Notes: generated by a model from the sequence alone, not told the origin. A stretch of 64,000 bases of DNA from an uncultured virus (IMG/VR IMGVR_UViG_3300032038_000056) (IMGVR_UViG_3300032038_000056), one strand, 5' to 3'. Counted from the first letter of the stretch, positions 40,700-64,000 are shown. Made by a program: numbers and translations.

Positions 40700-41014
40700 T
40701 TACATCCAGTGGTTCAGCGTGTGGATGGCCTCTTTACGGCCCGCTTCGGTGGTGTTAGAGGACAGACTGCCGTCGGACAGGATACGTGACAGCACCTCTC
40801 TGTTCTTGGTGATCTGATAGAAGTACGCCGTTCTGTCATCAATACCGATTGCACATCCCCTTGAACCAGCGGGGGTGAATATATCCACCATCCCCACCTT
40901 GATTGCAAGGACACGGGCTTTTCTAAGTGCATCCTTCATCGAATCAGCGGTATCCAGCACCTTGTAGGAACTTCCTTTATAGTGAGGAGTCTCGCATATA
41001 TTGTATCTGACCAT
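40700..41014 (-). CDS. Array family small protein
   Basis: DSMKDALRKA ... RILSDGSL. Confidence 0.65.
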   Translation of the reverse strand: MVRYNICETPHYKGSSYKVLDTADSMKDALRKARVLAIKVGMVDIFTPAGSRGCAIGIDDRTAYFYQITKNREVLSRILSDGSLSSNTTEAGRKEAIHTLNHWM

Positions 41015-41026
41015 TTTTACACCTCT

Positions 41027-42154
41027 TCAGTCGAACAGACCCGCATCCCCATCTCCCCACCATCCGCTCTTCGGAGGGGATTTCTTCTTAGGCGGGGATT
41101 TCTTGGCGGTCTTTGTGGGGGTTTTTCCCTTGGATCCCGTGGTCTTACCCTTGACAGCATTACTCCGTGTCTTTGAGGGGGTTCTGCGGGCAGGAGTGCT
41201 TGAGAACGCTGCTGGCAGGCCGTCATCGGCTTTTCTCGGTGCGGATCTGGTTGCTGTCTTCTTTTGAGCGGGTTTCGGGTTTGCACTAGTGGTTGTCTTC
41301 TTGGTAGTAGGCTTTTTACTACTTCCCCCTGTGGATTTGTTTGCGACAGTGCTTTTTTTACCGACACTACAGATCTTCGGGTGTTTCTCGCAAAACGATT
41401 TCTTGGGTTTCTTTTCTTTCTCTTTCTTCTCTTTGTTTCCCTTCTTGGGTTCTACGGGTTTCTCGTCATATCTGGGATATTCCCTTCTAGGCGACTCCCT
41501 TTCAGTGGTCTGTATCGGTGCGGGATATCCCCCCTGATAGATATTGACCATAGCAGGTGATTCTCTCTTAGGTTCTCTGAAATCTTCAGAGGGCATACCC
41601 TGAAACCTACTCATGTCTATCTCTTCATCATCGCCACCACTCTCAAGAATGGAGTCCCTTGTTTTCTTTCCATATCTTATACGGCAGAGATGGGGGTGAT
41701 CCTCACAAAATGCCTTTTTCTTTGTGCGGGACAGTTCGCGGGTGGCCTCAATGCTCTCTTTCTTTGCTTCAGCATATTCTTTGGTTCTGCGTGCGTTTTC
41801 CGTTTTGGACGGTTTTTCAGATTTTTCCGAAGGTTCTTCAGACATGAACGCATCGTACTTCCGTTTCTGTTCGCTATCCCAAATTTCTTTTCTGACCTTA
41901 TCTTGTTCTTTGTTAAACTTGAGGTTCTTTTTGTCAAATCTCTCTCTGAACTCTCTATCTTTATGTGCTTTTTTTAGGCTTTTTTCCAAATCCTTTTGGG
42001 GAGGGATGTCTTCTTCATCATCATCTGATTCAATATCCCTGTTAGCCTTGGCCTGTTCCCTCAACTGCCTGTTCCTTTCAGCATTCGCTCTAAGGGTTTC
42101 AAGGCGTTCTTCGGGACTGATATCGTCGTTATCTTCGATTTTCTTGACTGCCAT
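41027..42154 (-). CDS. Highly charged low-complexity protein with histone-H1-like K/T/S/P tail
   Basis: 375 aa; E/K coiled-coil N-half, two KKxFCExHPxxC repeats, ~100-aa basic tail. Confidence 0.7.
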   Translation of the reverse strand: MAVKKIEDNDDISPEERLETLRANAERNRQLREQAKANRDIESDDDEEDIPPQKDLEKSLKKAHKDREFRERFDKKNLKFNKEQDKVRKEIWDSEQKRKYDAFMSEEPSEKSEKPSKTENARRTKEYAEAKKESIEATRELSRTKKKAFCEDHPHLCRIRYGKKTRDSILESGGDDEEIDMSRFQGMPSEDFREPKRESPAMVNIYQGGYPAPIQTTERESPRREYPRYDEKPVEPKKGNKEKKEKEKKPKKSFCEKHPKICSVGKKSTVANKSTGGSSKKPTTKKTTTSANPKPAQKKTATRSAPRKADDGLPAAFSSTPARRTPSKTRSNAVKGKTTGSKGKTPTKTAKKSPPKKKSPPKSGWWGDGDAGLFD

Positions 42155-42202
42155 ATATAAGAGAATAAGATGTGTATATTAAAAGTAAACGGTATATTCG
42201 TA

Positions 42203-42457
42203 TTACCTATTACTCACAGCCGATCCATTTCTCAATATGAGGTATCTGCTGTAATATGAAGTGCAAATGCGTTTGTCCCCTGTTCGGGTTATGTACTCAT
42301 AGACATACTTCTCGAACGGGGTGATGCGTTTGACGGAAACGCTCTGGCCATCCTTCTTCAGTACGCGGTATGCGTATGCTCTGGCATGTGTGAGAGTGAG
42401 GAATCTCCTGTTCTTTACCTCATAGATTGTTCCGTCGCACTGGTTTGCGGTATTCAT
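42203..42457 (-). CDS. Array family small protein
   Basis: FLTLTHARAYAY ... YLILRNGS. Confidence 0.65.
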   Translation of the reverse strand: MNTANQCDGTIYEVKNRRFLTLTHARAYAYRVLKKDGQSVSVKRITPFEKYVYEYITRTGDKRICTSYYSRYLILRNGSAVSNR

Positions 42458-42714
42458 ATCTTGATCTTACCGTTCTTATACAGCGACTTATGTACCTCTG
42501 GGGGTCCGTAGGCCACCCACATGTATTCATCGCCGTACTGTTTGATGACATAACCAATCGCCATATCATCATCACGTTTCTTATAGATATCGACGTGGGA
42601 CTCTATACGCTCCTTCTTAAGCCAGTCTATCGCTTTCTTGCGTGCGTCCGTCATCGTTGCGGAATACTGTCTGAGGAACGTTCCAGGAATCTTTACGAAG
42701 ACCATCGTAATCAC
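42454..42714 (-). CDS. Array family small protein
   Basis: TMTDARKKAI ... LYKNGKI. Confidence 0.65.
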   Translation of the reverse strand: MITMVFVKIPGTFLRQYSATMTDARKKAIDWLKKERIESHVDIYKKRDDDMAIGYVIKQYGDEYMWVAYGPPEVHKSLYKNGKIKI

Positions 42715-43064
42715 TCACTGAAAAGGGTCTTGTCCACCCATATGCGTCCAGTCGTGTCCACCCTCATGAGCCTGTGGTACGGATCCTTGGCATAGTCCCT
42801 GTCGATAACGCATCCGTCGAAACGTGTACCGCCGTGAGAGTATGTGTTCATTATGACCTCATAGGCCAGACCGTTGAGGGATTTAGGGGTCACGGTAATT
42901 CCCGCTTTGCAGATATACGCCTCATAGTGCTCGATGCCCTTTACGGCCTTACAGCCGATTGCTCTTGCCTTGGTCAGTCCGTCCACACCCTCCCTGTACA
43001 TCTGCCAGTAATACCCTCTCCTCCCGTTCTGGGGTCTGAGGAGTACGATGTCATATTTTGCCAT
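42711..43064 (-). CDS. Array family small protein
   Basis: GLTKARAIG ... RVDTTGRI. Confidence 0.6.
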   Translation of the reverse strand: MAKYDIVLLRPQNGRRGYYWQMYREGVDGLTKARAIGCKAVKGIEHYEAYICKAGITVTPKSLNGLAYEVIMNTYSHGGTRFDGCVIDRDYAKDPYHRLMRVDTTGRIWVDKTLFSE

Positions 43065-43075
43065 AATCTTCCCCC

Positions 43076-43546
43076 TCAATATTTGCCGAGCCTACCTGTC
43101 TTGGGGTTCAGCGTGTATCTTTTCTTCTTGATATAATCGCTGTACTCATAGCGATATCCGTTCGTGTAGATGTAGCCGACAGAGGCCAGTTCGGAACTGC
43201 CGTCACGACTCTTGACAGCGAAGATACCTACCGCACCCCAACCTTCCTTGTGCATCAGCGCACACGCCTTTATACGTGTATCCACCACCGTAGATGCGCT
43301 GGTATGAGGATATGTTTCGTTATGCCCGATGATGAACTTCTCGTGTCTGAGGTCTTTGAATGCCTTTGTGATCGCATCCAGATAGAAGATTGTCACAGGG
43401 GAATCCCCGAATGCCTGTCTTACCTCTACGGATCCAGAAGGGTCCTTGGAGAGAAACGCCTTTGCCGAATCCCTAATCTTTACCATATCTGTCATGAGGG
43501 ATTCATCCGATCCGCCTTTTCCTTTGTGATATATCACTTTGAACAT
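43076..43546 (-). CDS. Array family protein (possibly two units)
   Basis: DMVKIRDSA / TVVDTRIKAC ... YTLNPKTGRLG. Confidence 0.65.
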   Translation of the reverse strand: MFKVIYHKGKGGSDESLMTDMVKIRDSAKAFLSKDPSGSVEVRQAFGDSPVTIFYLDAITKAFKDLRHEKFIIGHNETYPHTSASTVVDTRIKACALMHKEGWGAVGIFAVKSRDGSSELASVGYIYTNGYRYEYSDYIKKKRYTLNPKTGRLGKY

Positions 43547-44074: not shown

Positions 44075-44380
44075 TCACAGAATCCTCTTACCGAGTGTAC
44101 CATCCTTGTTCAAAATGTATTCATAACCCCCCTTAGACCAGTCATTATAATAGGTCATTCCTTCTTGATAATAAATACCAGAAGATTTGAGAGACACCAG
44201 ATCTTCCTTTTTCATACGCTTGACGATACCCATCATATTCTCAGAACCATAGAAGTTCACTTTTATGATCATAGCATCTGGGATGCGACCCGCGATGCTG
44301 TATGCGTACCTTCTTGCACCGTCTATGCTCTTGAAACCGTCTTTACGGATTCCTCTTCCGTATGCTACTACATATTCCAT
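44075..44380 (-). CDS. Array family small protein
   Basis: FKSIDGARRYAY ... YILNKDGTLGKR. Confidence 0.7.
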   Translation of the reverse strand: MEYVVAYGRGIRKDGFKSIDGARRYAYSIAGRIPDAMIIKVNFYGSENMMGIVKRMKKEDLVSLKSSGIYYQEGMTYYNDWSKGGYEYILNKDGTLGKRIL

Positions 44381-44489: not shown

Positions 44490-45326
44490 TTACTTGATCC
44501 CCGCTTTCTTCAGAACCTTTACGATGACGGTCTTCTGTACCTTCTTGCACGATACGGACGGCCTTTCCTTCTTCCAATCCGTATTCTGGAGGATATTGCG
44601 TACATATCCTATCATTGACGGATCCTTTACCTTTATCTTGTAGACCATCGCCAAGTCTGGCTCGTTCTCTTTCAACAGCGAACCCGCTCTTCCTCCCCAA
44701 CAGACCATTCTGAAATCGTAATCGAAATCCGCATAACCCTTTGAATCGGATCTCATGAATGATACAGACTTCAGTTCCTCCGATTTCCTCTTATTGACTC
44801 CGTGTGCTGGCCTCCTGTAGATGTTGAAACAGCACTCTACGGGTTTATGGCCAGAGAACACCACCTTACCCAGTCTTTCGCTGTATACAAGGTCGAACTC
44901 ATACATCGTTGCATTCGTTCCGAGTTGGGAGATGGGGAGGATCCAAGCGACATAATCCCCGTATGCCACACACCTCTTCCAGAACTTCTGGGCGAGGCTC
45001 AATCTCGCACCGAACGGGGGGTTGCCTATGAAACATCTGCCTTTCTTATATCTGAGGGGGATTGAGAGGAAATCGCCTTGGGCTATACCGATGCCTTTCG
45101 GTTCTATGTCCACCGCTACAATCGGTGTCCTCTGGTCTATACGTCTGATGCCTCTTATGAATGCGCCAGTACCAGCGGACGGCTCGAAATATTCCGTGAT
45201 GTTGCTTTTCCCCAGAACCCTCTCCGTCGTCAGGACACAATGTGTGGCGAGGCTGTCTGGCGTGTAATACTGGTCATAATCCAGTTTGTGACAGACGTTG
45301 CCCTGATACTGTGAATCGAACTTCAT
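44490..45326 (-). CDS. DNA N6-adenine methyltransferase (gamma class)
   Basis: DQYYTP, FEPSAGTGAF, VDIEP, GDFL, IGNPPFG. Confidence 0.85.
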   Translation of the reverse strand: MKFDSQYQGNVCHKLDYDQYYTPDSLATHCVLTTERVLGKSNITEYFEPSAGTGAFIRGIRRIDQRTPIVAVDIEPKGIGIAQGDFLSIPLRYKKGRCFIGNPPFGARLSLAQKFWKRCVAYGDYVAWILPISQLGTNATMYEFDLVYSERLGKVVFSGHKPVECCFNIYRRPAHGVNKRKSEELKSVSFMRSDSKGYADFDYDFRMVCWGGRAGSLLKENEPDLAMVYKIKVKDPSMIGYVRNILQNTDWKKERPSVSCKKVQKTVIVKVLKKAGIK

Positions 45327-45342: not shown

Positions 45343-45696
45343 TCACTCGATGACCTTTCCGAGAGTTCCGTCCTTGCGGAGTTGTCTCTTTATCGCGGGA
45401 TCCCCGTACAACTTCGGGCGGATGTACATCATTATCCCGCCTCTGTATCTCTGGGCGAATCCGATCTGGTATCCTTCTCCGTATCTTCCTCCCCAACTGT
45501 ACGCATCCATTATGAATACAGTGGTGGTCAGAGGATTGGCGGTCAGTTTCCTGTATGCCTCCGCTCTTACCTTCACAATCGAATCGGACTCATATGCTTT
45601 TGCTCTGGCCTCGTGATCCGCTCTGGCGTAATATCTTTTCATACGCTGAGATGTCTTTCCGATGTATTTGTATGTTCTGTTCAGCAGGCGCATCAC
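45343..45696 (-). CDS. Array family small protein
   Basis: SIVKVRAEAY ... QLRKDGTLGK; start uncertain. Confidence 0.65.
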   Translation of the reverse strand: MMRLLNRTYKYIGKTSQRMKRYYARADHEARAKAYESDSIVKVRAEAYRKLTANPLTTTVFIMDAYSWGGRYGEGYQIGFAQRYRGGIMMYIRPKLYGDPAIKRQLRKDGTLGKVIE

Positions 45697-45920
45697 TGTG
45701 CGACCACAGTTCCTCCCGCTCTGACCCTTCTGTATTCCTTATCGGATTCCGTGTATATCCAAACGCCGTCATCGAGCATATGGATCCGTCCGTAAGGCTC
45801 TCCGTCCTTGAACAGAGGAAGTCTGTCGCCCTCGAACCTCAGACATCCGTATGCGGATTTCCTCATCGAAGGGAGGTCGTCGAACTCTTGTGTCTTACCG
45901 TTGATTGTATATGAGTACAT
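45693..45920 (-). CDS. Array family small protein
   Basis: FDDLPSMRKSAY ... RVRAGGTV; TATA upstream. Confidence 0.6.
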   Translation of the reverse strand: MYSYTINGKTQEFDDLPSMRKSAYGCLRFEGDRLPLFKDGEPYGRIHMLDDGVWIYTESDKEYRRVRAGGTVVAQ

Positions 45921-45956
45921 ACGTCTGTATGTATGTAATATATTAAAAAGGTTTGT

Positions 45957-46346: not shown

Positions 46347-46579
46347 TCAATGTTGCATAACGCACACAGCCAAGCGGTCATCGGAGGGAATACCATAAAG
46401 GCTATCAGCAGGAACCATTCGTTCCAGTCCTCCACGGGAACTATGCCGTAATGGTCCAATGCACCCAGTATGCCGAAGTACAGCATCAGTCCGATTGTGA
46501 ACCCGATGACGAAATACATCCCGACAAGTCCATGCGCCTTCCATTCGTTATTCATCCCATCACTTCCTGAATACAGCAC
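46307..46579 (-). CDS. 2-TM membrane protein
   Basis: Two helices; LDHYGIVPVED resembles neighbour's LDWAGVITYVED. Confidence 0.55.
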   Translation of the reverse strand: MLYSGSDGMNNEWKAHGLVGMYFVIGFTIGLMLYFGILGALDHYGIVPVEDWNEWFLLIAFMVFPPMTAWLCALCNIDWIKKRYYPKVEQ

Positions 46580-46862
46580 CCAGAGAGCCGTCTGGATTGA
46601 CCTCGCGCCCTCTAAACGGTATCTTCTTCTTGAACCCCCAGATGTTCACGGTCTCCTTGGCATCGGTGAACCACCAGACCTTCCCCGTGGTGTTCAGATC
46701 CCATATCAGCACGCCTTCCTTGTTCTCGCCTTTGTAGACGGTGAACATAGCCTTCCCGTTGATCAGACCGAGTTTACGCATCAAGGTCTTTCTGACTTCC
46801 GTAAGGGAGTCGGCATTGACAGTGAACGAACTGTATCCGTTGTTACAGCGGTATTTGGTCAT
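46560..46862 (-). CDS. Array family small protein
   Basis: DSLTEVRKTL ... EVNPDGSLGA. Confidence 0.7.
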   Translation of the reverse strand: MTKYRCNNGYSSFTVNADSLTEVRKTLMRKLGLINGKAMFTVYKGENKEGVLIWDLNTTGKVWWFTDAKETVNIWGFKKKIPFRGREVNPDGSLGAVFRK

Positions 46863-46871: not shown

Positions 46872-47168
46872 TTATGCCCATACCATTTTAACTGTGCCGT
46901 CTTTCCGAATGACATACTTTCTGTTATGATTGTTGAGATTATCGGCGAGATATAAGAACTGTCCGTTGCTTTCTTTCACTTTTCCGTATACCCTTGTGCA
47001 TTTGGGGTTACTGTAGAACGTAACGGTCTCATTGGGGAATATGTACTTCATTATGAACTTCAGACAGTCCTTTCTGGTGTTGAACTCTTTGGTGATGAAA
47101 CGCCCCTCCCTATCATATGGATCATCGGGGTTGCTCCAGCACCTTACAAAATATAATGCACTAGCCAT
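46872..47168 (-). CDS. Array family small protein
   Basis: FNTRKDCLKFI ... YVIRKDGTV. Confidence 0.65.
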   Translation of the reverse strand: MASALYFVRCWSNPDDPYDREGRFITKEFNTRKDCLKFIMKYIFPNETVTFYSNPKCTRVYGKVKESNGQFLYLADNLNNHNRKYVIRKDGTVKMVWA

Positions 47169-47397: not shown

Positions 47398-47449
47398 TCA
47401 CACCGCCCCCTGTTACATCCATATTTCCTTCAAGATATAAAAAGGCCGT

Positions 47450-49069: not shown

Positions 49070-49198
49070 TCTCCTTTCGGGTTTCCCCTTTGTTGAGTGT
49101 ATATTATCTGATTGATATATAAATGTATGTACGGATGTATTAATTAAAGAACGAGAAAGTAAGGGGTTTGATATATTGTGGTACTTTTGTATAGTGAT

Positions 49199-49615: not shown

Positions 49616-49867
49616 TCAATAGAATACAGACTGAAGTTCGTACTGTATTCTGCCGTCCTCTCTGAGAACATATACACGGGATTTGATGTGGTCCTTATAG
49701 ATCCATGAACCCGTGGCATAGTAGATATGCCCTACGACTCCTTTTCCCTTTTTGAAGAAGTTTGCCACTTTGTTCTTGCCGTTCCTCTGGATGAACTTTC
49801 TGCGAATCTCGACAAGTCCGTTCGCCCTGATGATCTGGTTTCCTTCCCAATACAGATATTCTGCCAT
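49616..49867 (-). CDS. Array family small protein
   Basis: NGLVEIRRKF ... YVLREDGRI. Confidence 0.65.
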   Translation of the reverse strand: MAEYLYWEGNQIIRANGLVEIRRKFIQRNGKNKVANFFKKGKGVVGHIYYATGSWIYKDHIKSRVYVLREDGRIQYELQSVFY

Positions 49868-51610: not shown

Positions 51611-51624
51611 TTTTACCCCTCCTT

Positions 51625-53371: not shown

Positions 53372-53653
53372 TCAGATGAACTTGACACGCTCGACCTTCT
53401 GGCCGAGAGAACCGTCTGCCTTGATGGGGTATGTTCCAGCCTTCTCGTTATCGAAGAAGTAGAACTTTCCATCGACACCTCTTGACACGAATCCGATCTT
53501 CCTGCGGTTGGCGTAGATGCCGATGAGGGGATTGACACTCCCATACTCGGTAACATACATCTTCCACACACCTTTTGCCTCTTTAAGAGCCTCTTTCCTC
53601 GTACCGAACGGCCACGATGTTCCCTCGATACTGTATGCTGTTCCGTTTGCCAT
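53372..53653 (-). CDS. Array family small protein
   Basis: FGTRKEALKEA ... YPIKADGSLGQK. Confidence 0.7.
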   Translation of the reverse strand: MANGTAYSIEGTSWPFGTRKEALKEAKGVWKMYVTEYGSVNPLIGIYANRRKIGFVSRGVDGKFYFFDNEKAGTYPIKADGSLGQKVERVKFI

Positions 53654-53664: not shown

Positions 53665-54117
53665 TCACGTGAAGTCATAGATGTTCATGTGCAGATTCTT
53701 GTTGTAGAACACCCTTGTGGGTTTCAGCGGAATCTGATCGATAGGGGTCTTCCCGATAAGTCTGCCCTCTGCATTGATGCGGTAGAAGTATTCTCCAGAA
53801 TCATCGATTAGGATAGGGCCGACAGGGGACTGTCTGACAGTTCCGTAGGGGATTCCCTTCTCATATGCCAGCACGTGATAACTGTAATCCCTCGTGTATT
53901 CACTGGCGTTGTAGTAGTATTTGTTCAACACCTTGAACACGGATGCATACTGTTTCGGACCAGTATTCCTGACCGCCCACCTTACCGCCTCGGTCTTGGT
54001 AGGGAAGTTGTATCTGCTGGATCCAATCTTTCCATGCCCAACGTTCGATATCTGTACGCCGTAGACGTACTGCTTTCCATATATGTCCTTGACATTTCCG
54101 CGTTTAACTTTCGGCAT
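53665..54117 (-). CDS. Array family small protein
   Basis: FPTKTEAVRWAV ... YRINAEGRLIGK. Confidence 0.7.
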   Translation of the reverse strand: MPKVKRGNVKDIYGKQYVYGVQISNVGHGKIGSSRYNFPTKTEAVRWAVRNTGPKQYASVFKVLNKYYYNASEYTRDYSYHVLAYEKGIPYGTVRQSPVGPILIDDSGEYFYRINAEGRLIGKTPIDQIPLKPTRVFYNKNLHMNIYDFT

Positions 54118-54387: not shown

Positions 54388-54627
54388 TCACCTCTTCAGT
54401 GTTCCGTCCTTGTTGATCTCGTAATCTATCCCGCTGACGGAACGGTATCCGAAGTACCTCTTCCCCTTGTATCTGTTCGTGAAGACCTGTCCTTGGAGTC
54501 CTCTCCTTCTTTCATAGATCTGGATAGTGGCCTTGTGCAATCTGAGGTATGCCATCGCTTTCTTTCTGGCATCCTTGATGTGCTCGAAATAGGTCTTTGA
54601 CAGAGAAGGGGAGGTGTAGTACATCAT
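54388..54627 (-). CDS. Array family small protein
   Basis: FEHIKDARKKAM ... YEINKDGTL. Confidence 0.7.
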   Translation of the reverse strand: MMYYTSPSLSKTYFEHIKDARKKAMAYLRLHKATIQIYERRRGLQGQVFTNRYKGKRYFGYRSVSGIDYEINKDGTLKR

Positions 54628-55052
54628 TTCCTCCTCGGTCTTGTCCAGACCCCTGCTTTAGGGGCGTCGTGGTCAAAATACCAACTGAAACTATCGCTGG
54701 TCATAGAGATACTACCATCCTTCCCGATAAGGTAGTATTTGTATGTACCAGTAGGACGGTCATCCTTCAGGATCGCTTCTCTGCCGAATGATTTGAACTC
54801 GTACTTCGGTCTGATGAACATCTCTGTCGTAACAGTGACCAACTGAAATGCTGGCCTTATAACGCCATTGGTAATCTTCGGGTTCTTGATGATGATAGTA
54901 TCAAAATACCTCCCACCGAGTTCCCTACCAGACATTTGGGATGCTTTCTTACGTGCTTCCGTAAGAGAAGTAAACCTTCCGTAAAAGTTCTTCTTGTTCG
55001 ATGAATAAACATCGTAAGTCTGAGATGTTTTGTAGATCGGCATTTTCTTCAC
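54624..55052 (-). CDS. Array family small protein
   Basis: FTSLTEARKKAS ... YLIGKDGSI. Confidence 0.7.
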   Translation of the reverse strand: MKKMPIYKTSQTYDVYSSNKKNFYGRFTSLTEARKKASQMSGRELGGRYFDTIIIKNPKITNGVIRPAFQLVTVTTEMFIRPKYEFKSFGREAILKDDRPTGTYKYYLIGKDGSISMTSDSFSWYFDHDAPKAGVWTRPRRK

Positions 55053-55959: not shown

Positions 55960-56013
55960 TCACCTCAGTTCAGCACCCAGACTTCCGTCAGCGTAGATCT
56001 TGTATCTTACCAT
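55960..56013 (-). CDS. 17-aa minigene / collapsed array paralog
   Basis: MVRYKIYADGSLGAELR*; TTTTATAT box ~25 nt upstream; stop overlaps next GAGGTGA RBS. Confidence 0.45.
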   Translation of the reverse strand: MVRYKIYADGSLGAELR

Positions 56014-56082
56014 ATTTATTTGTATGGGGTACAGGATATAAAAGAGTAACGTAAAGATATTACAAAAAAAGGGGGAATGGGG

Positions 56083-56487
56083 TCAAAGACCCATCGTTCT
56101 CTTGTTGGGATACGTGTAGTCGGAGATGACATCGCCAGACTTCTTCGACTTGATCCTCTGTGCGGTAACGAACGTCAGATAGTTCGCACCAGGGATTCCA
56201 GCGAATGTTCCGCTGACCGAGAAGTACAGGGTGTTGTAGTATCCGTCGGACAGTTTTCCGCCCATCTCGGACTTGACCTCTACGGTGCGGGATTTGGATC
56301 TGTTCCTGACCATCGCTGTGAAACTGAGGTAGGAGTCCTTCGAGATATCGAACAACAGCATCTTGTGGCCGTTCTTCATCCCCTTCATATCCTGTTTGTC
56401 CTTGATCTCATCAACGGTCGCGTAGACCATCCCGTACACGATCCCTCTGAATCTTTCAGGCAGTTCGTCCAGTTGCATCCTTGTCAT
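56083..56487 (-). CDS. Hypothetical protein
   Basis: 134 aa, ends KRTMGL. Confidence 0.6.
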   Translation of the reverse strand: MTRMQLDELPERFRGIVYGMVYATVDEIKDKQDMKGMKNGHKMLLFDISKDSYLSFTAMVRNRSKSRTVEVKSEMGGKLSDGYYNTLYFSVSGTFAGIPGANYLTFVTAQRIKSKKSGDVISDYTYPNKRTMGL

Positions 56488-57138: not shown

Positions 57139-57465
57139 TTATGATTTGATCATTCTCCACCCAATCTTTCCGAGTTTTCCATTGGGGGGTATCGTGTAAC
57201 TGTACTTTTCGGTATTTCTCGAACTTTCATACTGAGGTGTGAATGAAGGGGACACCCAACATACACCTATGATATACCGTGAATCCCCTCCAGAATCATC
57301 GCGGAGATCCTGTCTGATCTGTGCTCCTTTTCCAGCGGGATATTTGTATACATCGTATATGGTGTAATCATACGATTTCTGTTTAAGAGATCTGTATGCA
57401 AATGCCAGAGCCTCTGACATTGTACCAAATTCCTTGAAGATTCTTCCAGTGTTTATACCGTACAT
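57139..57465 (-). CDS. Array family small protein
   Basis: FGTMSEALAFAY ... YTIPPNGKLGK. Confidence 0.65.
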   Translation of the reverse strand: MYGINTGRIFKEFGTMSEALAFAYRSLKQKSYDYTIYDVYKYPAGKGAQIRQDLRDDSGGDSRYIIGVCWVSPSFTPQYESSRNTEKYSYTIPPNGKLGKIGWRMIKS

Positions 57466-57469
57466 CTCA

Positions 57470-57802
57470 TCACAATCCGAATGGATGCGGTTTTGCATCC
57501 TTCCTTTTCTTTCTCTTATTCGTAGTGCCGTCCAGATTCAGATGATGTGCGCCAGAACCGTTGCCGCTCCAGTTGAACCACGAGAACCCGCCAGAGGCAT
57601 TCTTACGGACGTATCCGCAAACTGTTCCGTCCGAAAATACACCAATCTCATGTTTCTTGCCGTCCGCTCCAAAACGCCCGTTCATTAGGATCTCTATAGC
57701 GGACGCTCTTACTCTTTCGAGTCCTGTTATATCCCCTGTAAGGAATCTCTCGGTCTGCCCGTCAAGATCTCCGATGCGGTAAAGGTAGAGCGAATACATC
57801 AT
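57470..57802 (-). CDS. Array family small protein with PFGL tail
   Basis: GLERVRASAI ... HLNLDGTT ... KRKDAKPHPFGL*. Confidence 0.7.
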   Translation of the reverse strand: MMYSLYLYRIGDLDGQTERFLTGDITGLERVRASAIEILMNGRFGADGKKHEIGVFSDGTVCGYVRKNASGGFSWFNWSGNGSGAHHLNLDGTTNKRKKRKDAKPHPFGL

Positions 57803-58131: not shown

Positions 58132-58473
58132 TCACAGTCCGAACGGTGCTGGCTCGGTTTTCTTCTTCGTGTACGATTTGATGCGGTTCATAGCCTCCCT
58201 CTCGGTCAGAAGAACCTTTCTGGACAGACCAGTGAACTCGTACATATACGTCCTTCTCTCGCTGTCGTACCACTTGTACCCCCTGACGACAGCAACCGTT
58301 TCGTGTACCCCTCTGGAGGAAATCTTGTCGATGGTGGCGTAATAATACGCACCTTCCTCTACCGATCTGGAAGTCAGTCTTTTCAGCCACCAGAGTCCTT
58401 CTCTGATGACCTTGTTCTCAATCGCTGTACGCGATGCGGTTGTATATGAGTCCCCTGTCGTATACTCGGTCAT
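58132..58473 (-). CDS. Small protein with PFGL tail
   Basis: KKKTEPAPFGL*. Confidence 0.65.
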   Translation of the reverse strand: MTEYTTGDSYTTASRTAIENKVIREGLWWLKRLTSRSVEEGAYYYATIDKISSRGVHETVAVVRGYKWYDSERRTYMYEFTGLSRKVLLTEREAMNRIKSYTKKKTEPAPFGL

Positions 58474-58474: not shown

Positions 58475-58795
58475 TTACCACTTTTTCAGTTTGCCGTTCG
58501 TGAACAGTCCATGTCTACCGTTATGCACCCAGTACCATTCATGAGTTCCTTCGTATCTGAACTTGGGATTCCTCCAATAGATGTTTTCTTCGACTACGCC
58601 AGCAATCTTGTTGCCAGATGGGTCGAGGTATATGTACGGTCCTGTGGATTTACCCTTGACCTTACCAGACTGTAGTGCGATGGATCTTGCTCTTGCCTTT
58701 TCGAGAGATGTATAAGGGCGGGCATAATGCTCGTAGAGGTTGCGGTCCCATCCCCTTCCCCCTCTTAATTTATGTTCAATTACATAGTAGGTCAT
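58475..58795 (-). CDS. Array family small protein
   Basis: YTSLEKARARSI ... LFTNGKL. Confidence 0.65.
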   Translation of the reverse strand: MTYYVIEHKLRGGRGWDRNLYEHYARPYTSLEKARARSIALQSGKVKGKSTGPYIYLDPSGNKIAGVVEENIYWRNPKFRYEGTHEWYWVHNGRHGLFTNGKLKKW

Positions 58796-58799: not shown

Positions 58800-59189
58800 T
58801 CACAATCCGAACGGTGCTGGTTTGCTCTTGTTCTTCTTCCTCTTCTCCTGTCTCTCACGGGTCTCATCGGAGTCATATGCCCATCCTTTGAGTGCCTTGA
58901 CCATCTGTGCCTCGGTCATATCTTTCAGCGACGGGAATATAAGAGGTATCTCGGACAGGGGGATCACAACAGCATCGCTGTCCTTTATGCGCGTGCCGTA
59001 TTCCCTCTCGGCATCGAATACGACTGCGGTCTTGTTCCTCAGTGCGCCCAGATAGGTTCTGAACACCTGTGAGACCGCTAGACCCTTGCCCTTGACCTCC
59101 ATTACGATGACGTGGGGTTTCTTCATCTGTGTGGAGGTAGGCACGTATGCATCTTCCAGATAGGATCCAGGGAACTTGTATTTGGCCAT
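58800..59189 (-). CDS. Small protein with PFGL tail
   Basis: KRKKNKSKPAPFGL*. Confidence 0.65.
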   Translation of the reverse strand: MAKYKFPGSYLEDAYVPTSTQMKKPHVIVMEVKGKGLAVSQVFRTYLGALRNKTAVVFDAEREYGTRIKDSDAVVIPLSEIPLIFPSLKDMTEAQMVKALKGWAYDSDETRERQEKRKKNKSKPAPFGL

Positions 59190-59202: not shown

Positions 59203-59541
59203 TTACTGTCTCTTCTTTTTGAGGAACTGCTCTCTGTGTTCCTTGATTTGTTCCACAACCCAATCGGTATCCTTTTTGATGACCCCGTAGAGATCGCCAG
59301 TCGAATCCATACTATACAGTTTACCGTTGCTGTACCACACCAAATGTTCATCGTAGTGGTTGTTGCGACCGATGGTGTAGTATTCCATCGTTGCACCGAC
59401 ATAACGGTTCTCGTTGTAGATCATAGCGATACGACCACCGCGAAGTCCGTCGCTGAAGAACATATCGTAACTCTTCCCTCTCGCACCGTTAAGGGTCTTG
59501 GCTGATGCCTTCTTTCCTTTGCAATAGATGTAGTAGGTCAT
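59203..59541 (-). CDS. Array family small protein
   Basis: KTLNGARGKSY ... YSMDSTGDL. Confidence 0.65.
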   Translation of the reverse strand: MTYYIYCKGKKASAKTLNGARGKSYDMFFSDGLRGGRIAMIYNENRYVGATMEYYTIGRNNHYDEHLVWYSNGKLYSMDSTGDLYGVIKKDTDWVVEQIKEHREQFLKKKRQ

Positions 59542-59545: not shown

Positions 59546-59830
59546 TCATAATCCGAAAGGATGCCACTCCTTGTTCTTGTTCTTCTTGAACTCGGACGTA
59601 AGCCCGTTCTCGTGCAGTCTGAGTTTCTTCCCGAAGACCGTCTCATAGTACGAACCGTTCTTTGAATAGTGGCACGTACCGACCCATTTCTGTCCGTTGT
59701 AGATGTATGCCTCGTTGCCGTATCTACCGCCAGACAGGATGAAGTAAGCGTTCCTGCGTGCCTCGATCAGCGTCATACCCGCTCTCTCACGGATCCCAGA
59801 GGCTTTCTCATATTCGACCCAATAGACCAT
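59546..59830 (-). CDS. Array family small protein with PFGL tail
   Basis: TLIEARRNAY ... LHENGLT ... KNKEWHPFGL*. Confidence 0.7.
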   Translation of the reverse strand: MVYWVEYEKASGIRERAGMTLIEARRNAYFILSGGRYGNEAYIYNGQKWVGTCHYSKNGSYYETVFGKKLRLHENGLTSEFKKNKNKEWHPFGL

Positions 59831-59878: not shown

Positions 59879-60148
59879 TCAAGTCTTCCTTATGACCCCT
59901 TCCGAGTTCACGAAATATGCACTGCGGGTCTTGGCATCCGACCAGATGAAATCTCCCCTGTCCTCGTCGAACGTAACGAACCCTATGGGGAATCTGGAGG
60001 TCTTGCTGAGGAAGATCCACGCGACCCTTCCGATACCGACTGTCTTGACCGCCTTTCCGCGTGCCACGTTGATGCGTTCGGTGTGTACGTCCTTGCGCTT
60101 ATCCAAGGGCTTTCCCTTGTAATCCGTGTACTCTATCCAGTATGACAT
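59879..60148 (-). CDS. Array family small protein
   Basis: RINVARGKAV ... YFVNSEGVI. Confidence 0.65.
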   Translation of the reverse strand: MSYWIEYTDYKGKPLDKRKDVHTERINVARGKAVKTVGIGRVAWIFLSKTSRFPIGFVTFDEDRGDFIWSDAKTRSAYFVNSEGVIRKT

Positions 60149-60157: not shown

Positions 60158-60451
60158 TCAATCGAGTTTCCTTCCCAGAGTTCCGTCTGGGTTCATGAGG
60201 TATGTTGTGCCTTTACTCCCCCCGTAGGAGATGTAGATGGGTGTCGCATATTTGTTGTATCTTTTACCCATCACAACACCGAGTGCAGTCCATCCCTTAT
60301 TGTGTTTTGCCTTCTCATTACGGGCGCATACATAGATTTCGTTGCATCTTTTTCTGTATGCATTCTCTCTGGCCTCGGTGATTGTATCATATTCTTCTTT
60401 GAACCACTTTTTATCAGAATTGTTCCATAACATATATCTCATTACGCTCAC
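60158..60451 (-). CDS. Array family small protein
   Basis: YDTITEARENAY ... YLMNPDGTLGRK. Confidence 0.7.
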   Translation of the reverse strand: MSVMRYMLWNNSDKKWFKEEYDTITEARENAYRKRCNEIYVCARNEKAKHNKGWTALGVVMGKRYNKYATPIYISYGGSKGTTYLMNPDGTLGRKLD

Positions 60452-60452: not shown

Positions 60453-60827
60453 TCACGGGGTCAGATCCTTCCTCTTGACCTTCTCGCCCAATGCACCAGT
60501 GGATGGATTGACCTTGTAGCGATATGTCCTCTTATGCTCGATTTCGCAGTAGTACCCTTTCTTTTTAGTGTTGTTGTTATAATCCCACGATATCTTCTCT
60601 ACGAGTATGCCTTCATATCCTCTGTGATACTCGTAGATGAAGCACTTGGCGTAGAACCACCTGCTGTTCTCCTTGATGAGTTTCACAGCGTCCACTCTGG
60701 CCTTTTCCAAGGACTGATACTCGCCCTTCTCCACGCCTTTCGAGGGGTATCTGCTACCGCCGAACAGAATGGGCTGGATGGTGTATTTGCGGAACTTTCC
60801 GATGAATCCGTCTTCTGGATAGTACAT
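60453..60827 (-). CDS. Array family small protein
   Basis: YQSLEKARVDAV ... YKVNPSTGALGEK. Confidence 0.7.
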   Translation of the reverse strand: MYYPEDGFIGKFRKYTIQPILFGGSRYPSKGVEKGEYQSLEKARVDAVKLIKENSRWFYAKCFIYEYHRGYEGILVEKISWDYNNNTKKKGYYCEIEHKRTYRYKVNPSTGALGEKVKRKDLTP

Positions 60828-60841
60828 TTCAATCCCTTACC

Positions 60842-61222
60842 TCACAATCCATACACATAATTTGAGGGATGCCAAGGTTCAACCTCTTCCTTAGAGACTT
60901 TACGACCGAGAGTGCCGTCAGAATTGAGGATGTACGCCTCCATACTGTTGTGCAGGAGTTTGCGCCAATAGATCTTACCGTTACGGCAGAACACGACACC
61001 AATCGACATCATCTTCCTTTCAAGATAAGGATCAGATTTTCCATACGTGGAATATATCTTTATGCCGTTGCCCATCTTCTTACGTGTACTCATCATACGG
61101 TACGCCCATTTACGTACATCGGTAAGTGCGCTGTTCTTATCCCATATGGCCTCATTGAACTCATGGGAAAGGTTCGGTGCGTATCTGTTGCCGATGATTA
61201 CATCTCCTGTGTATATTGCCAT
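60842..61222 (-). CDS. Array family small protein
   Basis: ALTDVRKWAY ... YILNSDGTLGRK; ends WHPSNYVYGL. Confidence 0.7.
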   Translation of the reverse strand: MAIYTGDVIIGNRYAPNLSHEFNEAIWDKNSALTDVRKWAYRMMSTRKKMGNGIKIYSTYGKSDPYLERKMMSIGVVFCRNGKIYWRKLLHNSMEAYILNSDGTLGRKVSKEEVEPWHPSNYVYGL

Positions 61223-61232
61223 TTTTCTCACC

Positions 61233-61553
61233 TCACAGCCCGAACGGGTGTGCTGTTCCTTTCTTCTTTACGATAGGTCTGCCCGTGTCGGGATTGACCG
61301 CTTTTCCAGAGTCACGAACGAACCTTCCACCCGTATAGGATACTGTGTCAAAATACTCATAGTATTCCAACGCGCCACCATTGTAAAGACGCAGGATCAT
61401 AACATAATAAGGGGATAGGGGTCTGTCAATACCTTTCCCACGGATCCACCAGCACGCATACTTGATGGCATTATAGGGAGAGTCCACGGACATAACCTCT
61501 GACTCCTCTTTGTTCGTCATAGCGTTTCTCAAAATAAATCTGTATTCTACCAT
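61233..61553 (-). CDS. Array family small protein with PFGL tail
   Basis: SPYNAIKYAC ... AVNPDTGR ... KKKGTAHPFGL*. Confidence 0.65.
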   Translation of the reverse strand: MVEYRFILRNAMTNKEESEVMSVDSPYNAIKYACWWIRGKGIDRPLSPYYVMILRLYNGGALEYYEYFDTVSYTGGRFVRDSGKAVNPDTGRPIVKKKGTAHPFGL

Positions 61554-61861
61554 TATATCCACTTCCACTCCCTGTTATAATCAAGCAGTTTGCCATTGAC
61601 AGGGGATACCCTGTATGTCCTGTTCCTGGCCCACTGATGAATGTGATAGCCGTTCAGCAGTTCCCCTGTGATGATCCTGTAGTTATGATAGTACGTGATG
61701 TCCTCGATGGGATGGCTGAACATCTTTGACGGATCATATATCGCAACCCTCTTGCCAGGGTTCTTCTTTGCGATGGCACACGCCTTGACGCGGGTATCCT
61801 CAAGTCTCTTGGATCCGAGTACCCTGTCTCCCTTTCCGAATATCTCTATCAAGTAAGTCAT
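61553..61861 (-). CDS. Array family small protein
   Basis: RLEDTRVKAC ... YRVSPVNGKL. Confidence 0.65.
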   Translation of the reverse strand: MTYLIEIFGKGDRVLGSKRLEDTRVKACAIAKKNPGKRVAIYDPSKMFSHPIEDITYYHNYRIITGELLNGYHIHQWARNRTYRVSPVNGKLLDYNREWKWI

Positions 61862-62187
61862 ATCTTTCCCTTCCTGATTGAACCATTCCTGTATAGTGTG
61901 TAATATTTCCCACTCCAGTAAGGCACATAGGCTACCCAGAAATCATTACCAGAACCCAATGTCCCGACAGATCCGCAGACATATTCTTCCCCATCCCTTT
62001 CCACAGAGCATACCGCAACGATAGTAGAGGATGATCTGGCTAGATGGTGCTTCGGACTCAATGCAATCTTGCTGTATGCGTAGGCACGGGCTTCCGTAAG
62101 GCTGTTGAACTGCCTATTGACTACCTTTTTGCGCGGGATGTCCTTATTGTCGTTCTTATACCAATACAATACGTATCCGTCTATCAT
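61858..62187 (-). CDS. Array family small protein
   Basis: FNSLTEARAYAY ... YTLYRNGSI. Confidence 0.7.
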   Translation of the reverse strand: MIDGYVLYWYKNDNKDIPRKKVVNRQFNSLTEARAYAYSKIALSPKHHLARSSSTIVAVCSVERDGEEYVCGSVGTLGSGNDFWVAYVPYWSGKYYTLYRNGSIRKGKI

Positions 62188-62191
62188 AGTA

Positions 62192-62470
62192 TCACAGTCC
62201 GAACGGCAGATTAGACTTCTTCTTTTTCTTATACAGATTCCTGTACTCCGAGCCAATAGGCATAGCGAGACGGGTATTCGTGTAGATGACGGTCCACTGA
62301 TACGGTTTTCTGTCACGCACATACTCTTGGAGTTCGATAGGGTACTCCGCACTCGCCTTGCACCTCTGGTCGTAATACCTTAGTGCTTCCGTGTATGAGA
62401 GGAACTCTCTGGATGTCATTCTGTCCCCAAATCTTATGACCTTGTAGAAATGATCCGATGTGTATTCCAT
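62192..62470 (-). CDS. Small protein with PFGL tail
   Basis: FLSYTEALRYY ... KKKKKSNLPFGL*. Confidence 0.65.
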   Translation of the reverse strand: MEYTSDHFYKVIRFGDRMTSREFLSYTEALRYYDQRCKASAEYPIELQEYVRDRKPYQWTVIYTNTRLAMPIGSEYRNLYKKKKKSNLPFGL

Positions 62471-62479
62471 TGTTTCACC

Positions 62480-62782
62480 TCACAGTCCGAACGGATGCCA
62501 TTCTTTCTTTTTCGTCTTCTTAGCGAACGTCCCGTCTGCATTTATGCGTCTCTCTCTTCCGTCAGTGGTCTCGTATGTATATTCTATGATACCATAATGG
62601 TTATACTTGCTGACAATTCCTATAAGAAGTCCAGATTCGTTGTTTCTGACCCACATCTCTCCGTTGCACCCTCCTGCGTTGATGATTATCTTCCTTGCCA
62701 TCGTTTCAGTGGTTGCATTGGCATAAGACTCACGGTTTTTGTCATAAACGACAGAATATTTGTAGAACAGATGTCCGCTCAT
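62480..62782 (-). CDS. Array family small protein with PFGL tail
   Basis: TTETMARKII ... RINADGTF ... KKKEWHPFGL*. Confidence 0.7.
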   Translation of the reverse strand: MSGHLFYKYSVVYDKNRESYANATTETMARKIIINAGGCNGEMWVRNNESGLLIGIVSKYNHYGIIEYTYETTDGRERRINADGTFAKKTKKKEWHPFGL

Positions 62783-62783
62783 T

Positions 62784-63089
62784 TCAATCCCTCACAGAGC
62801 CGTCCCCGTTCAGAATGTGTTTCCTGTTATCGTGGTAGTAATCGTACCAGATGAACTGTCCGTTCTCCCTCTTCACGACACCAGCGACAGGATTCATAAT
62901 CCTCCCGCCGAATATTGCAACGACCTTGACGGAGTAATGTTCATCGAGGTATCTGTATGCGCCAGCACGTGCATTCTTTATTCCCGTGAACCTCTTTGAA
63001 TCCCCAGAACTGTTCTTGACCCTGTGGTACTGTCCGTTGATAGGGCATTTGTATTCAAGGCTGTACGTTTTGTATGATGCGTTTGCCAT
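62784..63089 (-). CDS. Array family small protein
   Basis: FTGIKNARAGAY ... HILNGDGSV; TATA-like element ~63110-63119. Confidence 0.7.
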   Translation of the reverse strand: MANASYKTYSLEYKCPINGQYHRVKNSSGDSKRFTGIKNARAGAYRYLDEHYSVKVVAIFGGRIMNPVAGVVKRENGQFIWYDYYHDNRKHILNGDGSVRD

Positions 63090-63164
63090 ACATCTGAAAC
63101 GTTGTAGGTATATTTAAAAGTGTATTACGTAAAAAGAGGAAAAGGTTTCAGCGGTGCTTGAACT

Positions 63165-63401
63165 TCAGTAGATCCTCTCACCGAGAGTTCCGTCCTTGTT
63201 CAGTCTCCACATACAGCCGTCAGTGGATTTCCAATATCTCTTTTTCATTCTGTAATACACCGCACCGACATAGAGTTTGGTGTGTGCGCCATACTTAGAG
63301 ACATCTACCGCATAGATGTTCTTGTTCACTCTGGATGCAGCGTATGCCCTTGCCTCGTCCAGCGTATCAAACTCTTTTGCTCCGACAACATATATTGCCA
63401 T
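63165..63401 (-). CDS. Array family small protein (closest to consensus)
   Basis: FDTLDEARAYAA ... WRLNKDGTLGER. Confidence 0.7.
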   Translation of the reverse strand: MAIYVVGAKEFDTLDEARAYAASRVNKNIYAVDVSKYGAHTKLYVGAVYYRMKKRYWKSTDGCMWRLNKDGTLGERIY

Positions 63402-63428
63402 ATTTCTCACCTCTTTCAAATTATCTCA

Positions 63429-63791
63429 TTAGAGATCGTCCATTTCTCCTCTACGGATTAGTCTCTTGTTATGCCTTCCGCCATTCGCATCCAGATCGTA
63501 AGCGTAATCCGTATCGGCCATGTACATCACAGGTCTTCCGTGTCTCAAACAGATGTACGCATAGTCCTCGCATCCCGATGAGATCGTGAACCCGTATGTG
63601 CTTGCACCCCTGCCCTCGACCGTATAATGCTTTCTCAATCTGGCATAGACAGAGGGGGCGCATACCCTCATACCAATCTTAATCGCGTCCTCTCTTGAGA
63701 GTTCCCCAGAGAGACCTCCGTAGGATTTGCCAGCATACGGCCCTCTGAATTTGAAGGTATCCACACTGTATCCGCTAATCGTCTTGCTCAT
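63429..63791 (-). CDS. Array family small protein (divergent)
   Basis: SREDAIKIG ... YDLDANGG. Confidence 0.6.
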   Translation of the reverse strand: MSKTISGYSVDTFKFRGPYAGKSYGGLSGELSREDAIKIGMRVCAPSVYARLRKHYTVEGRGASTYGFTISSGCEDYAYICLRHGRPVMYMADTDYAYDLDANGGRHNKRLIRRGEMDDL

Positions 63792-63809
63792 CTGATCACA
63801 TCCCGAACT

Positions 63810-64000
63810 TTACCATTTTAACTGATTTGTAGGAACGATGTACCATCTCTGTCCTTTTCTCTCGTAGGTCGCCCAATACCATGAAGATCCCAGATAGGGA
63901 TTACTCACCCAGATCTGGATGTATTTTGCACGATTCTTGAGACCTTCCTTTTTTGCCTTACTTGTTAAGGCTTCTAAACTGATTTTATCAGAAGAGTAAG
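63810..64000 (-). CDS. Partial ORF (5' end off window), related to WYKEW subfamily
   Basis: Manual translation ...LEALTSKAKKEGLKNRAKYIQIW...YERKGQRWYIVPTNQLKW*. Confidence 0.5.
   Translation of the reverse strand, partial: YSSDKISLEALTSKAKKEGLKNRAKYIQIWVSNPYLGSSWYWATYERKGQRWYIVPTNQLKW

Follow-up and report, generated by a model that had tools for sequence, protein, structure and literature searches.

What use does a virus make of several dozen small, related genes packed side by side? This question is raised by a stretch of 64,000 nucleotides (nt) of DNA from an uncultured virus (IMG/VR IMGVR_UViG_3300032038_000056), analysed here as a whole and hereafter called the window. Its last 23 kb are filled on the minus strand by an array of small open reading frames (ORFs). 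A preliminary description had proposed that these ORFs encode paralogous, small basic proteins that have one scaffold, belong to no recognised family and have been expanded to a repertoire. In this study, we found that a single family of highly divergent proteins with its own predicted fold makes up about half of the array. Tentatively, with confidence a little short of even, we read the array as a repertoire of factors for host interaction, each of them dispensable by itself, which would act in host takeover or counter-defence on one scaffold.

One divergent protein family fills much of the array

The locus is as follows.

40700..64000, minus strand: whole array of 63 small ORFs, which runs past the window end

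Coding in this region was on the minus strand throughout. After curation, in which nested and wrong-frame ORFs were removed, 63 co-oriented ORFs remained, 62 of them complete and one cut at the window end. Their median length was 106 amino acids (aa), and 59 of the 63 were 60-190 aa long. Junctions of 20 nt or less were found at 51 of 62 positions, and 14 of those were overlaps, typically by 4 nt. GGAGG/AGGTGA-type ribosome-binding sites were located 5-10 nt upstream of most starts. Where the mechanical ORF calls had long "N-terminal extensions", several of these were the C-terminus of the preceding gene in another frame, and the shorter starts were confirmed by orthologues in other samples. 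The array makes up about one third of a genome of roughly 65-70 kb. The orientation and tight coupling given in the preliminary description were correct, and its count of about 55 ORFs became 63 after curation.

An all-versus-all phmmer comparison linked a core of 11 array ORFs at E<=1e-3, and the shuffled control gave 2 matches at E<=1e-2. Iterated hmmbuild/hmmsearch from this core converged at 25 ORFs at E<=1e-3 (shuffled decoys, 0/1260 at E<=0.1), and all 25 were recovered by hidden Markov models (HMMs) of the other 24, with E values of 1.8e-13 to 1.9e-4 (leave-one-out). With the HMMER filters off, 7 more ORFs outranked the first decoy. Furthermore, HHalign against a 150-row family profile placed 8 extra ORFs, at 15.7-94.7% probability, above the best of 114 decoys (4.2%). 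Of the 402 ORFs in the six frames of the whole window, 29 were matched by an HMM built from the wider alignment (A2-HMM). Each of these lay on the minus strand at 42.2-63.4 kb, with none in 1-40 kb and none on the plus strand. On the strength of the HMM, leave-one-out, decoy, HHalign and six-frame results, we regard the family as real and confined to the array. Membership comprises 25 firm and 8 probable ORFs, that is, 33 of the 63. The all-versus-all, HMM and HHalign comparisons gave profile similarity beyond that of the decoys (25 ORFs by HMM, 8 more by HHalign). The claim of one family held, and the proposed number of about 35-40 paralogues, comprising most ORFs, was somewhat high (25 firm, 33 with the probable ones, of 63).

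Firm members, each supported by HMM and leave-one-out, are listed below with any further support.

42203..42457, minus strand: a03 (84 aa; HMM E 3.5e-9, leave-one-out 2.3e-5)
42454..42705, minus strand: a04 (orthologue P0006, 96%)
44075..44380, minus strand: a09 (YILNKDGTLGK; also phmmer; start set by orthologue P0022)
45343..45693, minus strand: a11 (orthologue in other samples)
46560..46862, minus strand: a15
46872..47168, minus strand: a16 (also phmmer)
51089..51628, minus strand: a27 (179 aa, the domain being the C-terminal half)
51625..51930, minus strand: a28 (also phmmer)
51935..52273, minus strand: a29 (also phmmer)
52279..52689, minus strand: a30 (missing with a31-a32 in strains X1-X3)
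52909..53346, minus strand: a32 (orthologue in other samples)
53372..53653, minus strand: a33
54388..54627, minus strand: a36
54624..55043, minus strand: a37 (orthologue in other samples)
57139..57465, minus strand: a43 (orthologue in other samples)
57470..57802, minus strand: a44 (tail KRKKRK...HPFGL)
58475..58795, minus strand: a47
59546..59830, minus strand: a50 (tail KKNKNKEWHPFGL)
60158..60442, minus strand: a52 (modelled protein, see below)
60453..60827, minus strand: a53
60842..61222, minus strand: a54 (end ...NYVYGL)
61858..62190, minus strand: a57 (start set after the a58 stop)
62480..62782, minus strand: a59 (tail KKTKKKEWHPFGL)
62784..63089, minus strand: a60 (also phmmer)
63165..63401, minus strand: a61 (WRLNKDGTLGE; also phmmer; reciprocal best match in the related genome G001, see below)

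The HHalign members, all against the decoy maximum of 4.2%, are as follows.

40700..41014, minus strand: a01, probable (44%)
43076..43546, minus strand: a06, probable (71%; A2-HMM 9.4e-7; domain at residues 74-155)
45693..45920, minus strand: a12, probable (87%; A2-HMM 7e-5)
49616..49867, minus strand: a22, probable (86%; A2-HMM 4.1e-7)
53665..54117, minus strand: a34, possible and the weakest (15.7%)
59203..59541, minus strand: a49, probable (76%)
59879..60148, minus strand: a51, probable (94.7%; A2-HMM 5.9e-9)
61553..61861, minus strand: a56, probable (61%)

Pairwise identity among the 25 members ranged from 9 to 37.5%, with a median of 20%. DNA repeats in the array were only short stretches encoding shared motifs; therefore, the array contains no recent duplicates.

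A confident predicted fold without a known relative

The alignment of 150 family sequences showed conserved columns at Y6, F/Y21, T/S23, L/I24, A27, R28 (142/150), A31, I39, Y40, G58, V60, G69, W/Y73, Y84, L86, N87, D/N89, G90 (150/150), T/S91, L92, G93 and K/R94-95, and K88 was also among the conserved polar positions. The N-terminal Y strand, helix motif, G.V strand and DGTLG hairpin noticed earlier correspond to these columns. The domain is single, approximately 80-110 aa long, with one hairpin per member. An AlphaFold2 (AF2) model of a52, based on the 150-row alignment, reached a predicted local distance difference test (pLDDT) of 90.8 and a predicted template modelling score of 0.82. Its order is beta2-alpha-beta5, with strands at 4-10 and 15-21, a helix at 24-33 and then five strands. 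Together, the HMM family and the confident predicted fold bear out the idea of paralogues with one scaffold.

S/T-x-x-E at a helix start is the classical capping box, and N-x-D-G is a hairpin turn. Because a capping box, the N-x-D-G turn and small helix residues are found among them, most of the conserved positions look structural in the model. For R28 and the basic residues near the hairpin, a structural role and a role in a shared binding site are both conceivable.

When the 63 array ORFs were searched against Pfam and PHROGs, the members had no match at E<=0.01 except isolated weak partial ones: DUF6117 at 0.0017 (a57), phrog_38524 at 0.0027 (a09) and phrog_32102 at 0.0023 (a61); TOBE was matched by the non-member a18. 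At E<=1, no Pfam family was common to more than two of the 150 family sequences, and NCBIfam gave only two single matches for the 25 members, with E about 0.07. Foldseek of the a52 model against PDB and BFVD returned 0 matches at E<=1e-3, and the best Z among 48,161 chains in VIA-align was 5.3, below the tool's stated background of 7-8. The confident common fold is accordingly one without a convincing match in PDB or BFVD.

Several candidates were considered. The best small-protein neighbour was AcrIF9 (PDB 7chr/7bb5), a 76-aa sheet plus helix, of which 64/76 residues aligned at a root-mean-square deviation of 3.3. Its homology was not accepted because the Z scores (5.1 for 7chr_A and 4.3 for 7bb5_A) were at or below the background of 7-8, the identity was 9%, and Foldseek did not find it. 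A beta-propeller or repeat-protein identity (PQQ/BamB type) was rejected, since such proteins match only profile positions ~60-120 via many short stretches, and the family has one hairpin per member and a beta2-alpha-beta5 domain. A PDB profile search gave designer propellers through the hairpin only and an "Antitoxin" chain (7v5y_B, E 0.32), both rejected as motif-level. In the ESM Atlas, the clusters closest to a52 were viral 78-aa proteins at 0.83, a range that shuffled proteins also reach, and a46 gave a poor model (pLDDT 0.47). AcrID1, the Cas10d-binding protein of SIRV, was not among the 50 VIA-align rows listed nor among the Foldseek rows; no direct sequence comparison was made. A resemblance to the MC1-type archaeal chromatin protein (PF05854), a beta-beta-alpha-beta pseudo-barrel with a DNA-binding arm, was also considered. 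MC1 did not appear in the Pfam matches listed for the array ORFs (63) or for the family sequences (150), and the 50 VIA-align rows listed did not contain it either; a distant relationship may still exist.

The searches of Pfam, PHROGs, NCBIfam, Foldseek, VIA-align and PDB are thus in line with the earlier view that the family is not a recognised one. In the literature, no description was found of the family, of an archaeal C-terminal PFGL motif or of the virus group; the supplements of a methanogen-virus compendium (Nat Microbiol 2023) could bear on the lineage. As far as these searches show, earlier descriptions are lacking for the family and its fold, for the scale it reaches in an archaeal virus and for the C-terminal tag. 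Clustered divergent paralogues in a viral variable region are a known kind of thing; the family itself is new.

Uniform positive charge and the nucleic-acid alternative

All 25 members have an isoelectric point (pI) of 9.0-10.3, as expected of the "small basic proteins" first described, and their median net charge is about +7.6. K+R amounts to 17.7% in the members versus 8.7% in the window's large core proteins, and the members contain 8.1% Y. Non-member array ORFs are likewise basic, with a median pI of 9.5.

This uniform positive charge and the conserved basic positions lend considerable weight to a nucleic-acid-binding family, the alternative that the preliminary description had itself named. 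Its basic positions would grip the DNA or RNA backbone and its variable residues would set differing preferences for sequence or structure. The paralogues would then serve viral or host nucleic acid as regulators, chaperones or chromatin-like proteins rather than inhibit host proteins. R28 in 142 of 150 rows, the G-[KR]-[KR] after the hairpin, the basic non-members and the lysine-rich linkers of a tailed subset described below fit such a function, as do the long basic run and KKR-rich C-termini in the related genome described in the next section. On the other hand, no helix-turn-helix, ribbon-helix-helix, zinc or other known signature and no Pfam match was found in the family, and no structural match to DNA/RNA-binding folds rose above noise. 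Moreover, 25-33 regulators or chromatin proteins are hard to justify in a genome of ~65-70 kb, and whole-gene gain and loss between near-identical strains is unlike core regulators. We consider this explanation rather unlikely, although it is a strong competitor. If the targets were host machines bound to nucleic acid, this explanation and the host-interaction repertoire could both apply.

Relatives of the family and of the virus

A profile search of 1.84 billion protein representatives gave 302 matches at E<=1e-3 (11 at <=1e-10), mostly small metagenomic proteins. Among 44 of these that were scanned, 15 long ones were beta-propellers, MucBP or CHU_C proteins that matched only via repeated DGTL-like hairpins, and the other 29, short or tandem forms, had no Pfam family. 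Tandem two- and three-domain forms occur. By eye, a26 (50786-51079, minus strand) resembles the N-terminal segment of one metagenomic protein, P0015 (293 aa), the remainder of which carries two family domains. Members of ten clusters came solely from ENA/Logan metagenome assemblies, and these proteins had neither a name nor a reference accession.

A degenerate DNA pattern for LNKDGTLG hit 17 loci in IMG/VR, 16 by chance and one true. The true locus belongs to a complete virus of 60.9 kb with terminal repeats (G001), a distant relative whose ATPase, primase, helicase, exonuclease, 427-aa membrane protein and others are common to the window at 33-53% identity. Eighteen of its 316 ORFs belong to the family and form a single block (13.8-32.4 kb), which lies upstream of the ATPase module just as the array of the window does. 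The best match of 11 of these 18 lies in the window and not in their own genome, with three reciprocal best pairs, and a21 and a23, two well-conserved non-family genes, stand in opposite order in the two genomes. Because the members of both genomes are intermixed and the order of a21 and a23 is swapped, the repertoire is old and rearranged. This catalogue search for similar arrays thus yielded an 18-member one. The proposal of expansion to a repertoire is borne out by an array kept in a distant relative, with gene content that varies between strains.

In this relative, the family block is part of a run of about 45 small ORFs at 12.3-26.6 kb (L018/L019), almost all of pI 9-10 and one acidic (pI 5.0). 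Several of these ORFs end KKR-rich (e.g. ...KKRTVKRK), and mostly acidic small ORFs then follow at 27-31.7 kb.

Other searches for relatives gave less. Two more-distant partial records had three weak family matches each, and a54 and the 675-aa protein of the window, as single queries, had no match in IMG/VR. In the GenBank phage collection, 28-40 kb had no match at the DNA level, and tblastn with a09 and with the ATPase found nothing. An alignment of the membrane protein (A4) found six loci in JGI metagenomes, one of which is G001. The 10-kb flanks of these loci and of L023/L024 contained no family member, PCNA or PFGL tail; the arrays lie further off, which makes these flanks uninformative. 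The same alignment found no relative among 185,579 species genomes, and hence no provirus clue to the host.

Whole-gene turnover between strains

Contigs from four runs were compared with the window over 44-64 kb; they were 95-99% identical in the common parts, and the differences given here are those listed. ORFs a30-a32 were exactly missing (52273>53352) in X1, X2 and X3. Extra bases were present between a09 and a10 (728) and between a15 and a16 (335), and a37-a39 were replaced by 1224 other bases in X8. Further skips covered a21, a34-a35, a49, a52 and a55. The repertoire therefore varies gene by gene between near-identical strains, by whole-gene deletion, insertion and replacement.

Both sides of the 52273/53352 joint read AAAAGGTGA-N5-ATG, and both sides of the 53650/54381 joint have AGGTGAAAATATG in common. 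Because these joints lie at conserved Shine-Dalgarno (SD)-ATG sequences, the translation-initiation junctions appear to serve as recombination points. A further strain breakpoint, at 55996, falls inside a gene remnant.

55960..56013, minus strand: 17-codon remnant MVRYKIYADGSLGAELR*, a family gene reduced to its N-terminus and its C-terminal hairpin

The remnant, and the dispensability of single genes between strains, would suit an array of mostly decaying or selfish duplicated ORFs without function for the virus. We regard this as very improbable. The frames are open, with SD sites 5-10 nt ahead of the starts; orthologues in other samples are 85-100% identical; and the family has been kept in G001 despite core-protein identity of 33-53%. 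In addition, the fold prediction is confident, and the tail motif described next is kept at the protein level despite synonymous codon variation.

A C-terminal PFGL tail common to members and non-members

Seven ORFs at 57.4-62.8 kb (a44, a46, a48, a50, a55, a58 and a59) have a C-terminus made up of a lysine-rich stretch and then [HAL]-P-F-G-L-COOH, and two further ORFs terminate in YGL or MGL (a54 and a40). The seven are clustered within 5.4 kb (57470-62782, minus strand); three are family members (a44, a50 and a59) and four are not detectable members. Those ORFs with such endings that are not in the member list are given here.

58132..58473, minus strand: a46, membership not detectable, tail KKKTEPAPFGL
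58800..59189, minus strand: a48, membership not detectable, tail KRKKNKSKPAPFGL
61233..61553, minus strand: a55, membership not detectable, tail KKKGTAHPFGL
62192..62470, minus strand: a58, with a SYTEALRYY helix and without the hairpin, tail KKKKKSNLPFGL
56083..56487, minus strand: a40, non-member, C-terminus ...RTMGL

A comparable ending was found in 11 of 134 small relatives in other samples (9 PFGL, 2 YGL). The codons of the PFGL motif differ at synonymous sites; therefore, the motif is kept at the protein level. Neither a PFGL tail (316 ORFs) nor a PCNA was found in G001, a single co-absence that proves nothing.

The canonical PCNA-interacting protein (PIP) box is Q-x-x-[LIVM]-x-x-[FY]-[FYW]. 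Twelve aligned tails had a K-rich linker and x-[HAL]-P-F-G-L-COOH but neither Q nor an aromatic pair, which lowers the likelihood that they are PIP boxes and not the likelihood that they bind a clamp. A predicted complex of the viral PCNA (9-row alignment) and the tailed a59 (12-row alignment) scored 0.01 and 0.00, the mark being 0.32, which speaks neither for nor against binding.

Two further explanations involve the tail. In one, the family would be a new small fold that an archaeal virus lineage employs as a cationic docking scaffold for general purposes, and K-rich + [HA]-P-F-G-L-COOH would be a new linear motif tying part of the family, as well as some unrelated neighbours, to a common hub. 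The hub might be the PCNA/replisome of the virus, an unfoldase of the host or a virion during assembly. In effect, the array would supply exchangeable heads that carry the same address, and cassette exchange at SD-ATG junctions would renew them between strains. We give this only a small chance. In the other, to which we give a slightly smaller one, the proteins would be virion-delivered cargo packed with the DNA, like T4 internal or adenovirus core proteins, and the PFGL tail would be a packaging or docking tag. Basic charge suits packing alongside DNA, the tag is portable and common to members and non-members, and in both the window and G001 the array lies directly upstream of a packaging-type ATPase and membrane-protein morphogenesis module. 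However, the PFGL tail is on only seven window ORFs (plus the two with YGL/MGL) and on 0/316 in G001. No protease or cleavage motif was identified, nor any N-terminal tag beyond M-x-x-Y, and the several promoters of the array give the impression of separate units of early type, not of one late structural operon.

Promoters, virus type and host

The pattern TTT[AT]{1,2}ATA[TC] occurred at six sites in the array, all on the sense strand within 835 intergenic nt, with 0 in 22,466 coding nt and 0 antisense. Three of the six lie 27-30 nt upstream of a start codon.

63110..63118, minus strand: TATA-like box TTTAAATAT, 29 nt before the a60 ATG, leaderless-type
56036..56043, minus strand: TATA-like box TTTTATAT, after a T-run
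49115..49123, minus strand: TATA-like box TTTATATAT, upstream of a20
47435..47443, minus strand: TATA-like box TTTTTATAT, upstream of a17
45940..45948, minus strand: TATA-like box TTTTAATAT, 28 nt before the a12 ATG
42176..42184, minus strand: TATA-like box TTTTAATAT, 30 nt before the a02 ATG

The spacing of 27-30 nt from the ATG looks as expected of archaeal promoters with leaderless first genes. A 229-aa PCNA is encoded at 19622-20311 (minus strand; AF2 pLDDT 89.6), the top Foldseek matches of which were archaeal PCNAs: that of A. fulgidus (E 1.5e-15, template modelling score (TM) 0.84) and also those of H. volcanii and P. furiosus (about 1e-15, TM 0.8). Eight metagenomic homologues were 48-94% identical to it, and none was present in G001-G003. 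Archaeal-type PCNA, TATA-like promoters and prokaryote-style operons together point to an archaeal host. The best DNA matches were bovine- and sheep-gut metagenomes, with long contig pieces 95-99% identical to the window. The early guess of a gut or rumen archaeal virus fits these metagenomes, the PCNA and the TATA-like sites.

Elsewhere in the window lie genes for a D5-type primase-helicase, an SNF2 helicase, a RecE/YqaJ exonuclease, an RNA ligase, an RCC1/Flg_new protein (1041 aa) and a Zot/FtsK-like P-loop ATPase. A putative morphogenesis module (28118-37430, minus strand) comprises 641-, 427- and 675-aa proteins with N- and C-terminal hydrophobic helices and 80-131-aa proteins with two or three hydrophobic helices; one of its large proteins has an InlB B-repeat. 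The window showed no detectable terminase or portal, no capsid family of tailed phages and no tRNA. The gene content suggests a membrane-containing, non-tailed virion of the spindle-shaped or pleomorphic type.

About 30 array ORFs are not detectably family members; among these are a methyltransferase-like gene, two genes for membrane proteins and one for a K/E-rich protein of 375 aa.

44490..45326, minus strand: a10, DNA-methyltransferase-like, inside the array (phrog_5172 1.8e-25, phrog_799 4.8e-13)

The 375-aa protein, a02 (41027-42154, minus strand), is of K/E/P-rich low complexity with two FCE-x-HP-x-x-C motifs and had no family match. ORFs a17 (47170-47397, minus strand; 75 aa) and a31 (52692-52904, minus strand; 70 aa) form a second mini-family, matching each other at E<=1e-3. 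Both terminate in ...(R/K)WYKEW, and a similar RWY end is found on the partial ORF 63810-63998. A small serine recombinase of the resolvase type (39511-40326, plus strand) borders the array, and in G001 it lies inside the array (24663-25289; L019 4663-5289). Further methyltransferases are encoded outside the array at 9425-10939, 11146-11892, 16118-17344 (EcoRI-methylase family, E 6e-110) and 18282-19055 (minus strand), and a GmrSD-N + HNH protein at 14967-16121 (minus strand).

Weighing the host-interaction repertoire

We favour the host-interaction repertoire because the array combines one scaffold, dispensable and exchangeable cassettes, and a heavy investment of the virus in methyltransferases. 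The methyltransferase-like a10, at least four more methyltransferases and the GmrSD/HNH gene would supply a context of defence pressure. The array would then belong to the accessory part of the genome of a membrane-containing archaeal virus of the ruminant gut, and would probably be early. Each paralogue would present a different surface, the fold-holding residues being kept and the rest varying with the positive charge retained. Since every member is cationic, the targets would most likely be nucleic acids or nucleic-acid-bound host machinery. Short operons would be expressed from six or more archaeal-type promoters; their first genes look leaderless, and GGTGA-type ribosome sites precede the internal ones. 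Strains would be remodelled by whole-gene loss, gain and replacement, for which the short SD-spacer-ATG junctions would act as microhomology. That the members bind anything, what they target, when they act and how the virus benefits is what we infer here.

Several points weigh against this reading. On sequence comparison, the paralogues are old and not a recent burst (maximum pairwise identity 37.5%), and the cross-genome best matches (11/18, three reciprocal pairs) likewise seem to mark ancient paralogues. With orthologues at 85-100%, individual members look conserved rather than fast-evolving. R28, K88 and K/R94-95, if a common site, could favour one shared ligand, and characterised anti-CRISPRs are often acidic DNA mimics, unlike this uniformly basic family. 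About 30 array ORFs lack detectable membership. No fusion to a known-function domain was found at E<=1e-3 among 5782 longer candidates, which is weak evidence, and no RNA run was among the sequencing runs listed as containing window sequence.

Gut and rumen archaeal viruses are barely characterised, and here about one third of a genome is spent on a family absent from Pfam, PHROGs, NCBIfam and PDB. The array is kept in a distant relative yet reshuffled between strains of 95-99% identity, which would mark it as a principal place where this virus lineage adapts to its hosts. For structure and binding work, it provides a scaffold of 80-100 aa with a confident model; it also provides a natural presence/absence series, by which genes could be linked to host strains, and a candidate C-terminal docking motif. 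Should the host prove to be a rumen methanogen, the targets of the family would be practically interesting as a means of acting on the physiology of methanogens.

Comparison with known systems

The MGF110/360/505 multigene families of African swine fever virus (ASFV) and the poxvirus ankyrin and kelch families consist of tens of divergent, dispensable paralogues in a contiguous variable region with whole-gene gain and loss. Unlike the present array, they belong to another domain of life and have other folds, and their link to host range and immune evasion is experimental, the array being known from sequence alone. The hyperplastic regions and internal protein (IP) loci of T4 contain small, fast-changing, non-essential genes with their own promoters, and the IPs are basic, with one address tag common to variable bodies, some of them countering restriction. 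The hyperplastic ORFs are unrelated to one another, whereas one family is present here, and the IP tag is N-terminal, targets the capsid and is cleaved by the prohead protease, whereas the tag here is an optional C-terminal PFGL. A further likeness is to the AcrID1 clusters of Rudiviridae (SIRV1/2/3). These are small, clustered, very divergent paralogues with their own TATA-type promoters and mostly unknown functions; 26 of 35 AcrID1 homologues are reported to lie in four rudivirus genomes, and several of the clustered paralogues are uncharacterised (PMC11065993). The array differs from them in copy number (25-33 versus about 6-7, occupying ~1/3 of the genome), in its short operons where AcrID1 genes are mostly single, in its uniformly basic proteins and in a host other than Sulfolobales.

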